Of a DNA stretch of 64,000 bases, positions 9,001 through 12,000 are shown piece by piece (within the stretch, counting starts at the first letter, position 1; the number at the start of each line of letters is the position of its first letter). Source of the stretch: Escherichia coli (GTDB taxonomy: Bacteria; Pseudomonadota; Gammaproteobacteria; Enterobacterales; Enterobacteriaceae); assembly GCF_030384885.1 (NCBI RefSeq), contig NZ_CP128614.1; one strand, 5' to 3'. Position numbers: made by a program.

Positions 9001-12000
9001 CTTATGCCTATGTACCAAGCCTTAGATTCCTGATAGTTCTAAGGGCGAGAAATAGCAAACTTACTTGAAAATTGACTCTGAAATTCAAGCTTCAGCTAGA
9101 ATAAACTTCCGTTGCTCATCTTCGCATTTATAACATGCGAAATATTTGATTGTTTCCATATCACCAGTCACATACTCATCACAATGTGGACAGTTAACTG
9201 CTGACCATCCTCTATCAAAGCATGAAACACAACTCCACTGACCTTCAATATAGAAAACTGAATTTGGAGCGTGCTGACATACGTGACAACCAGCGACACA
9301 TTCGCCACCTTCCTCCCACCAATCATCACCCGTTACATATATGTCGCGACACAATTTTATTAAGATATTTGTGGTGATCTCATGAGCACATTGTGGACAT
9401 TTATTGATGTCAGGACTGAAAAATTCGAATGGTACTTTACAGTTTGGGCAAGGCAAAGTATCAGTGACTTGCTCTACCGCAACGCCCTGCGATTCGCAAA
9501 CAAGACATTCATAATCATCTCCCCATTTATGAGTATCATTAACTTTACCGGCTTCAAGGCCACATTGACGGCACTTAACTATTTTAATTTTTTTTAATCT
9601 TAAGACGTCAATTTCCTTTGAAAGCTCATTGAATCGGGTGCTGAGGAACTCTTTTTGTTGCAGCATTCTCTTATGCACACGCTCAAACTCTTCCTTAAAT
9701 TTAATAAATTCATCTTTCCATTCAATAGTGAGTAAATTATATAAATGGTGCCATGAAGACCATTGTTGAGCTACAACCCCTGCTTTATTAGCTTGAGCGC
9801 TTGAATATCCAGTGTGTGCAAAGTGAACAATTTGGTTCCTATGCGCACCTAACGTTCTGAACTCATCAAGGATACTGTCATCAAGTTTAATGCCAATAAC
9901 AGTTTTAAGACGTTGAACAGCGTCACTAAAATACACAGAATTAAAGTCACCAACGCTAAATTTTTGTTTATTAGCTTTGCCAGGATCATCTAATATTAAA
10001 GTCCAATGTTCGAGCATTAACCTTGCTTTTAAGAAAAGTTCAATGGCTGTATAGAAATCAACAATCGAATTTTTGGGTCTTATATTTAAATCATCAATTG
10101 ACGACTCAAGAAAATCTATAGCATTTATCACTAAAGAATCAAAAAGTTGTTCATTGCTCTGTACTGTTTGCTTAATGTATGTGCGTGCCATAATGCCTCT
10201 TGATTATATTGCCCTTCGAATGTTGAACATTATATCTTTAGAGGCAATATTTTGTCACATCCCACGATATTTTGGAGCTGAATTATTTGATCAGGCTTAC
10301 ACAATCTTTCTTCTCTATCCCCATTTACCTTTTGCTCTGTTACCTGCGTTGAAATGGTTGATGACCCACTAATACTGTACTCTGCCTCTTGTATAAATAC
10401 ATTTCAACATAAGATTGGCAAAGTAATCCTCCATAGTAGCTGCTTGAGTGGTTGATTGTCGGAATAGTGCATAGCCATTTTGGTCAGCAGAAAGCGCTGT
10501 TACCGAATGACTTGATCGTAGTACGTGTCTACTCGCCTACCAGAACTGCTGTCCTCTCATCAACTATCTGTATAGGACCATTTGAAACATCAGATATATT
10601 TTCAGAAATCTCCTGTTAGCGTGATGGTGACTATCTTAGCTGAGAAGGATTACGAATATATTCTTACATCATATTCTTTGAGGTGAAAGCTATCTATAAT
10701 TTTCCAGATAGCAAGTGTCTTTGAATGCATTATAATTGCCAATTTCTTGGTTTATTTCAATTTCATAATCTAAGCTGACAATAGGTATTTCAACACCATT
10801 TAATAAAAGAGACTCTTGATTTTTCTTCCATTTTTTGTTTTCATTCCATGCTAATTCACTTTTGTTCTCGGGGTCTCCCATTACTTCAATTTTGATACCT
10901 TTTAAAGTAAATGTACAATAAAATGATTTGATGTTTTCTGATGTGGTTTTAAACAACTCCCCTTTGATACCAGGGTTGATTAACTTGCATATTTCATTAG
11001 CCCCTTTCTCCGTTGTTATGATATCAATATCATTTGCATAAATTTGAACGCCTTGTAAGTACCTATTAGCCCCACCAGTTATACTCCAATCCTCCTCAAT
11101 CGGTTGGAGTAATAATGTTAATTCTGTAATTGCGTCGATCAATTGTTTGCTTTGAAAGTTATTTTTATTATAAAGCCGTTGAGCCCAGGTTTGTTTTATT
11201 TGCATACTGTGTTTTAAATAAATTGCATTATTAATGCTTGGAGCTGTAAATATCTCATGTTCGTATTTAGAATATATGTAAGATAGATATTCTGGTGCTT
11301 TGCGATTATTAATCTCTATGAATCCATCTATTTTTTTCATCTCATTGTGGGCGTTGAAAAAACCTGACACTTCTGAGAATAAATTATAGAAATTATTTAT
11401 GACTAGCATCCCAAATATGGCGCGGCTATACTGAAAATCTAAATTATCAGTCAGCGTGGTATACATAATAATAATTATACTAACTAGTAGTAGTATTGTT
11501 AGTAATAAATAGAATAACTTCTGCTGGAAAGCTTTAATATATAAGATAGAGTTCCAGTATGCATTCTCTTGTATGAGTGTTATTAACCTCTCTGCACGAA
11601 AGCCATTTTTATTTTCCGCATTACCATCAATGTAGAGTCGCTCTCGGTAAAAATTTTCCTCGCCTATAATACCTCTCAGCATTTCTAATCTTTTTGTTTC
11701 TATAGCCTTAGCTGCATACGAAGTTTTAAAATGCATTGCAAACCAAGTGAGGAGTTGTATTATAAACGTGAGGGTTGCAATACCGTAGAGCCAATGAGAA
11801 TTCAAAAAAATCCCGACGATCGATAAGCAGGAAATCATTAATGTTGAATAACTGATAGACTTAGATAAAAAGTCAACTCTATCAAAATAAAAACTACTGT
11901 TTTTTGATTCCATTTCTCTATCTTGCTCACTTTTTTTTGTATTTTTACATACGAATTGACAATGTCAAGATGTAGGGGGAATAATTTGTTCATAACGCAT

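Follow-up and report, generated by a model that had tools for sequence, protein, structure and literature searches.

A plasmid-borne, divergent member of the HEC-08 family in Escherichia coli, with a predicted HEPN ribonuclease domain and four zinc ribbons

The gene and the domains of its product

The stretch of DNA considered here (the window) comprises 64,000 nucleotides of the Escherichia coli contig NZ_CP128614.1 (NCBI RefSeq assembly GCF_030384885.1), and the subject of the analysis is a complete gene on its minus strand, whose product combines an N-terminal HEPN domain with a C-terminal array of zinc ribbons and is assigned, with some divergence, to the HEC-08 family of defence proteins. 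The coordinates of the gene, of the parts of its product, and of the neighbouring features are given in Table 1. The open reading frame (ORF) that had been claimed by an earlier reading of the DNA without database searches (the sequence-only reading) was recovered in the six-frame ORF list, with an ATG start and 368 amino acids (aa) plus the stop codon, and it is AT-rich and preceded by a good Shine-Dalgarno sequence, as that reading had also described. The GC content of the 1-kb bins over 9–11 kb is 0.38 and 0.35, against 0.50–0.52 in the adjacent backbone and approximately 0.44 in the window as a whole. The promoter-like site ahead of the gene is suggestive only, because the number of such sites across the region is not above the shuffled expectation.

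The N-terminal half of the protein contains the segment GAHRNQIVHF, which had been read as the Rx4–6H motif of a HEPN ribonuclease (RNase), and the all-alpha HEPN fold was found for this half. The residues R118, N119, and H123, together with all 16 cysteines of the C-terminal half, are invariant across 38 homologues, at identities down to 28%, so neither the motif nor the cysteines can be attributed to chance. The HEPN domain is followed by a helical linker; DSSP places helices at residues 132–157, 159–178, and 180–199 of the structure model, and W147, W158, F162, and I194 are invariant in the alignment of the homologues. When the Protein Data Bank was searched with sequence profiles, no relative of solved structure emerged for the HEPN half, and the matches of the zinc-ribbon or RING type were all marginal (E 0.007 or weaker).

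The eight CxxC pairs that had been listed for the C-terminal half are all present and invariant in the 38 homologues, which points to four zinc sites, the upper end of the three to four ribbons initially proposed. The knuckles are assigned to the ribbons in sequence order, by assumption. The structure model has beta-hairpins at residues 215–220 and 224–229, within the first ribbon, and Pfam Zn_ribbon_IS1595 matches residues 332–358, in the fourth, weakly (E 0.0073). A weak profile match to the RING of the arenavirus Z protein (E 0.007) extends across ribbons 3 and 4, which makes a cross-brace arrangement of these two ribbons possible. Individually, the ribbons resemble those of TFS/RpoM, Dof, and NrdR, which contact nucleic acids or polymerase, while the four-ribbon domain as a whole has a confidently predicted fold, has no solved relative, and was found only with this HEPN domain.

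Table 1. Features of the HEC-08-family gene, of its product, and of the element that carries it (positions in the window; residue numbers in brackets).
Feature	Position	Strand	Basis or remark
HEC-08-family single-gene defence protein, complete gene	9085..10191	-	ORF list; PADLOC profile; alignment to WP_001313577.1
Shine-Dalgarno AAGAGG	10196..10201	-	4 nt ahead of the ATG; read from sequence
Promoter-like site GTGACA-18-TATAAT	10229..10258	-	consensus scan, 11/12 positions match
N-terminal HEPN domain, DUF3644 type (~13-160)	9712..10155	-	
Predicted catalytic motif R118-N-Q-I-V-H123 (Rx4H)	9823..9840	-	R118/N119/H123 invariant; H123 opposite H128
Helical linker between HEPN domain and zinc ribbons (~161-199)	9595..9711	-	model helices; invariant residues
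C-terminal domain of four zinc ribbons (~200-360)	9112..9594	-	
Zinc ribbon 1, CRQC (207/210) + CLVC (229/232)	9496..9573	-	invariant columns; model beta-hairpins
Zinc ribbon 2, CPNC (248/251) + CPQC (265/268)	9388..9450	-	invariant columns
Zinc ribbon 3, CHVC (302/305) + CVSC (321/324)	9220..9288	-	invariant columns
Zinc ribbon 4, CPHC (334/337) + CYKC (353/356)	9124..9192	-	invariant columns; weak Pfam match
NTase-TM gene, 407 aa	10690..11913	-	between the Cap3 and HEC-08 genes
Complete type II CBASS operon	12249..16846	-	patatin phospholipase; CD-NTase (E 6.9e-215); Cap2 E1/E2 (E 1.1e-274); Cap3 JAB
Helicase-like ORF, 464 aa	19870..21264	+	weak RadD, type I R-subunit, and PbeA matches
Three large tandem ORFs, 720, 591, and 459 aa, tyrosine-recombinase-like	22096..27345	-	at one end of the element

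Assignment to HEC-08 and diversity of the family

The window protein matches the HEC-08 profile of PADLOC almost from end to end (residues 8–361 against profile positions 7–354 of 358; E 5.7e-70, 234 bits), and also matches the PADLOC model of DUF3644 (E 1.7e-44) and, more weakly, PDC-S64. The sequence-only reading had not recognised this combination of domains as a named family, and in this it was mistaken, given that it is named HEC-08 in PADLOC and has both a published activity in phage defence and a histidine mutant. The family belongs to the “Hma-embedded candidates” described by Payne et al. 2024 (bioRxiv 10.1101/2024.01.29.577857), in which a representative cloned in E. coli reduced the number of plaques, and mutation of H128, the histidine of the Rx4–6H motif, abolished the defence. 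According to the supplement of the same paper, the protein tested was WP_001313577.1 of E. coli ECOR52; its gene was located here in E. coli Nissle 1917 by means of the fragment of the gene start given in that supplement.

The window protein aligns with WP_001313577.1 over 359 aa at 30% identity (E 2e-39); the two are colinear along their whole length, and both the RNxxxH motif and the eight CxxC pairs fall in register. The two proteins are alike in length (368 and 366 aa), in the succession of a DUF3644 HEPN domain, a helical linker, and the eight CxxC pairs in the same order, and in their single-gene organisation, and WP_001313577.1 matches the same PADLOC models. On the HEC-08 model, the tested protein scores 575 bits, a homologue embedded in an Hma system 314 bits, and the window protein and its close relatives approximately 232–234 bits, a ranking on which the window protein appears as a clear but divergent member of the family. 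It differs from the tested protein in belonging to a separate clade, and its gene lies on a plasmid-borne mobile element rather than in a chromosome or an Hma system. Embedding in an Hma (helicase-methylase-ATPase) system, the setting in which HEC-08 was discovered, is not required by the PADLOC model, and is absent for both the window copy and the tested E. coli copy.

The HEPN survey of 2013 (Anantharaman et al., PMC3710099) had already placed DUF3644 in the HEPN superfamily, with a conserved Rx4–6H motif, and reported that proteins of the DUF3644 type (EC042_2821) are fused to zinc-ribbon domains and associated with restriction-modification operons. The EC042_2821/DUF3644 family is broad, and also includes fusions with winged helix-turn-helix and restriction endonuclease domains, so that the HEPN domain with four ribbons represents one sub-architecture within it. 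The window copy is thus new as a divergent, plasmid-borne member, whereas HEC-08 itself is already a named and experimentally supported family.

The matching plasmid records label the window gene “hypothetical protein”, because the Pfam model reports no DUF3644 for its product. The Pfam-A hmmscan of the window protein returned no significant domain, just weak zinc-ribbon or RING matches, with DUF3644 (PF12358) unreported; the precomputed Pfam annotation assigns PF12358 to some of the homologues only, flagging one as faint, and the current Pfam model of DUF3644 seems to miss the clade of the window protein. The search of NCBIfam yielded nothing meaningful for the protein, and that of PHROGs a single family of unknown function (phrog_37794, E 2e-36), while megablast against complete E. 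coli genomes recovered no match, and neither did Rfam over 8–13 kb of the window, at E up to 0.1.

Relatives of the protein are widespread. In a large protein collection, 130 clusters were matched at E up to 0.001, the closest being 89% identical to the window protein; the well-covered matches are approximately 350–400 aa long, and the shorter entries span only part of the query. The relatives with identities of 50–89% come from Rahnella, Ewingella, Klebsiella, Serratia, Pseudomonas, and Vibrio. Scanning one genome per species with two peptide patterns recovered at least 155 loci that encode relatives, a count that represents a lower bound, in the Pseudomonadota, Bacillota, Planctomycetota, Verrucomicrobiota, Nitrospirota, Acidobacteriota, and other phyla. 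Most of the relatives are chromosomal or borne by prophages.

The search of 1.84 billion cluster representatives with a profile of the zinc ribbons only retrieved 454 proteins at E up to 1e-10. The same HEPN domain lies at the N-terminus of all 98 newly retrieved representatives of at least 320 aa, and 95 of them have an R[NHQDK]xxxH motif where it would be expected. Since full-length proteins retrieved by their ribbons alone invariably carry it, the HEPN domain and the zinc-ribbon array form, on this comparison of sequences, a fixed pair, and the notion of the array as a sensor module shared among different effectors was rejected. The two halves differ in their conservation, with a mean pairwise identity of 51.5% in the HEPN core and 35.1% in the zinc-ribbon domain (27.5% without the cysteines), and between the window clade and the Hma-embedded clade the respective identities are 42–53% and 21–28%. 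A conserved HEPN core and a variable ribbon domain would fit an effector joined to a sensor.

The mobile element and the genomic neighbourhoods

The first 8719 positions of the window match more than 1,000 conjugative plasmids of the IncHI2 type, at 95–100% identity. Alignment to an uninterrupted IncHI2 plasmid reveals an insertion of 20.36 kb (8720..29080) in a backbone gene of 794 aa, of the “PAPS reductase family”, which is split into fragments at 6887..8842 and 29063..29635. The ends of the inserted element are imperfect inverted repeats, TACCACACTGTTACAGTGTAGAAA near 8729–8753 and the reverse complement of about 29055–29080. The HEC-08 gene is situated 365 bp in from the left end, the backbone stopping at 8719, which places it at the edge of a block of defence cargo, as had been supposed.

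From the far end of the element, the order is recombinase-like ORFs, helicase-like gene, type II CBASS, NTase-TM gene, and HEC-08 gene. Only the 459-aa member of the three tandem ORFs has weak matches to tyrosine-recombinase profiles (XerC/XerA); the 720-aa and 591-aa ORFs have no match in NCBIfam or PADLOC, and the three together possibly mark an element of the recombinase-trio type. The helicase-like ORF separates the recombinases from the CBASS operon, and a plasmid of Klebsiella oxytoca has it under the annotation of a DEAD/DEAH helicase. The NTase-TM gene owes its name to the combination of transmembrane helices with a nucleotidyltransferase (NTase) domain foreseen by the sequence-only reading: the C-terminal part has an NTase domain resembling aminoglycoside-2''-adenylyltransferase (Pfam Aminoglyc_resit, E 3.9e-7), and the N-terminal helices match the CBASS “4TM effector” of PADLOC weakly (E 7.9e-5), while no NCBIfam or PHROG family was found for the protein.

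The cargo is rare. The 3.2 kb with the HEC-08 and NTase-TM genes occur in three of the 72,556 plasmids searched, and the entire 8700–30000 stretch in only one, pMY490-mcr-9 of Enterobacter cloacae. CBASS, NTase-TM, and HEC-08 recur as a block on an IncHI1B plasmid of K. oxytoca, in a different backbone, where the CBASS genes are annotated as a DncV-like cGAS and a cGAMP-activated phospholipase.

None of these neighbours accompanies the family elsewhere. The NTase-TM protein, the four CBASS proteins, and two backbone neighbours gave no tblastn match in the 90 loci encoding relatives, which include those with HEC-08 homologues 83% and 89% identical to the window protein, and the conserved pairing with the NTase-TM gene that had been suggested is therefore absent. 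Clustering of the flanking ORFs found only one set of recurrent neighbours, the Hma genes, in approximately 20 of the 90 loci, all of the clade with 30–35% identity. Judged by their N-terminal sequences rather than by profiles, the Hma genes between which the HEC-08 homologue lies are taken to encode a methylase of the DUF1156 type, a large helicase, and an ATPase of the DUF499 type. The Hma embedding that lay behind the discovery of HEC-08 is thereby reproduced in these loci.

The association with defence that had been anticipated is borne out by this embedding and by other neighbourhoods. One relative lies in a P2-like prophage hotspot, between gpU and the tail-fibre genes, and another in a CP4-57-like island, beside CbtA/CbeA and an antirestriction gene; further relatives are found in a region between integrases, with HipAB, beside genes of the NERD and ABC-3C types, and near a DNA methylase and a YobI-like ATPase. 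Across these settings, HEC-08 appears to have no conserved partner gene and to be organised as a single gene.

Two further observations concern the surroundings of other family members. In 11 of the Hma-embedded loci (L033, L037, L041, and others), a protein of approximately 206 aa, NYN-like and beginning MSRVVAYVDGFNLYFG..., is encoded just upstream of the HEC-08 homologue and adjoining it (in L033, at 9380..9997). This protein may be HEC-09, in which case two candidate RNases would be embedded together in the same Hma systems. In Nissle 1917 (L092, 8975..13340), the tested HEC-08 gene adjoins an integrase fragment, and genes for a dynamin-family protein, an RdcB-family protein, and a patatin-like phospholipase lie upstream, a group that represents a possible further defence-like cluster. 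Of 5,426 complete E. coli genomes, 342 carry the tested allele itself.

Proposed function and alternative explanations

Taken together, the evidence makes it very probable that the window protein is a stand-alone anti-phage protein, a divergent HEC-08 in which a HEPN RNase domain of the DUF3644 type is joined to four zinc ribbons. For the homologue with 30% identity, the protection of E. coli against phages and its loss on mutation of the motif histidine are experimental findings; for the clade of the window protein, defence is predicted from sequence.

The mechanism is best approached through RAZR (PD-T7-4), in which a zinc-finger domain sets the phage specificity (Zhang et al., Nature 2026, PMC13017515), and which assembles around the rings of phage portal or recombinase proteins and then cuts mRNA, tRNA, and rRNA non-specifically (PMC13017515). 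Like HEC-08, RAZR is encoded by a single gene, combines a Cys4 zinc-ribbon domain with a HEPN RNase, which is divergent, and depends on its motif histidine; it acts by abortive infection. Membership of RAZR was nevertheless rejected for the window protein, due to the opposite order of the domains, the different HEPN family, and the lack of any match to the PD-T7-4 models of PADLOC at E up to 1. RAZR is thus an analogue rather than a relative, and by this analogy provides the best available working model for HEC-08.

HEPN RNases act as dimers, and it is from this general rule, together with the solved mechanism of RAZR, that the following sequence of events is inferred. The RNase would be inactive in uninfected cells. 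On infection, the variable zinc-ribbon domain would recognise a component made by the phage, most likely a protein, and this recognition would gather two or more HEPN domains, by the formation or re-orientation of dimers or oligomers, so that their R118/H123 motifs come together in a composite, dimeric active site of the Rx4–6H type, which would have the metal-independent activity of HEPN RNases. The activated enzyme would then cut single-stranded RNA (mRNA, tRNA, or rRNA), which would stop translation and abort the infection.

A number of points weigh against this interpretation. The window protein is only 30% identical to the sole homologue tested, and its score on the HEC-08 model is far below that of the latter (234 against 575 bits). 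The literature searched contains no RNase assay for any HEC-08 protein and no mechanistic follow-up on the family. The role of the ribbons as a sensor comes by analogy to RAZR only, and the parallel is imperfect, given that in RAZR the zinc finger is N-terminal and the HEPN domain C-terminal, the reverse of the order seen here, and that a DUF4145 HEPN domain and one zinc finger stand there in place of DUF3644 and four ribbons. The array was found with no other effector domain, so it is not demonstrably a portable sensor module, and inside the close clade the HEPN and zinc-ribbon domains diverge at an equal rate. The zinc ribbons could equally bind nucleic acid instead.

A more specific proposal can be put forward only tentatively, as a possibility on the doubtful side. 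In the plasmid-borne clade, the four-ribbon domain would be a dedicated sensor that binds an assembly of phage or plasmid proteins and acts as a template for the oligomerisation of the HEPN domains, and the protein would thus have evolved independently into a counterpart of RAZR, with a reversed architecture.

Among the alternatives to an anti-phage HEC-08, the one that survives best, though unlikely, is that competing plasmids or other mobile elements, rather than phages, are the main target of the protein, for which the single-gene Ishtar HEPN proteins that clear RP4 provide a precedent. The gene does lie on an IncHI2 conjugative plasmid, within a mobile element, and Ishtar proteins with a DUF4145 or DUF3644 HEPN domain cause plasmid loss (bioRxiv 10.64898/2026.07.06.735840); they are also monogenic, with this domain at the N-terminus and a domain without known function at the C-terminus (same paper). 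The only functional data on the HEC-08 family are, however, anti-phage, and most of its members lie in chromosomes or prophages. In the part of Table S3 available, the Ishtar proteins have 164–261 aa and no cysteine array, and the family is characterised by a length of approximately 170–260 aa and a cysteine-poor beta/alpha C-terminal domain, against the 368 aa and 16 invariant cysteines of the window protein. The window protein has no detectable similarity to one Ishtar family member (best BLASTP E 3.8), and the HEC-08 accessions do not occur in the supplementary files of the Ishtar paper (bioRxiv 10.64898/2026.07.06.735840). Based on length, cysteine array, and that single comparison, and within the part of the source available, membership of Ishtar was rejected, although an activity against plasmids and one against phages are not mutually exclusive.

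It is less probable still that the HEC-08 protein is a HEPN toxin paired with the NTase-TM protein, whose NTase would AMPylate the HEPN domain and so silence or control it, as in the HEPN/MNT toxin-antitoxin systems. The NTase-TM gene carries an MNT-like domain, lies directly upstream on the same strand, and is adjacent to the HEC-08 gene in all three plasmids that carry them, but these plasmids share one recent cargo block, so the adjacency represents one event rather than independent evidence. The two genes are separated by 498 bp and by a separate promoter-like site, and a single gene sufficed for the activity of the HEC-08 protein that was tested. In comparison with HEPN/MNT systems such as SO_3166/SO_3165, the window protein is approximately threefold larger and carries zinc ribbons in addition. 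Its neighbour is a membrane protein of 407 aa, whereas MNT antitoxins are small and soluble, and conservation of this neighbour with the HEC-08 family is lacking. Membership of these systems was rejected on the absence of the NTase gene from all 90 related loci.

Even less can be said for a role of the protein in the adjacent type II CBASS, be it as an accessory component or as a second effector. The patatin, CD-NTase, Cap2, Cap3, NTase-TM, and HEC-08 genes travel as one block on IncHI2 and IncHI1B plasmids, but the CBASS proteins are likewise missing from all 90 loci, the operon already has a phospholipase effector of its own, approximately 2 kb and another gene lie between cap3 and the HEC-08 gene, and the PADLOC and Pfam-A profile searches detected no nucleotide-sensing domain in the window protein. 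Hardly more credible is a non-catalytic regulator that would bind DNA or RNA through its ribbons, resembling as they do singly those of TFS/RpoM, Dof, and NrdR, and would use its HEPN domain only as a dimerisation or nucleotide-binding module, since RNxxxH is strictly invariant in the 38 homologues and present in 95 of the 98 further full-length representatives, and the mutation of the histidine abolishes defence in WP_001313577.1.

Given this, the gene can be relabelled from “hypothetical” to HEC-08-family defence gene. The picture of the family is left unchanged by the window copy, which would not surprise a specialist, but the second clade that it represents, with 30% identity and a strongly diverged zinc-ribbon domain, offers a useful partner for domain swaps in the search for the determinant of specificity. 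If the four-ribbon domain is indeed a sensor of phage or plasmid protein assemblies, the clade might be of use to the IncHI2 plasmid when it competes with phages or with other mobile elements. A compact defence block, made up of type II CBASS and HEC-08, occurs on some large resistance plasmids of the mcr-9 type, both IncHI2 and IncHI1B, and this bears on how resistance plasmids alter the phage sensitivity of their hosts.

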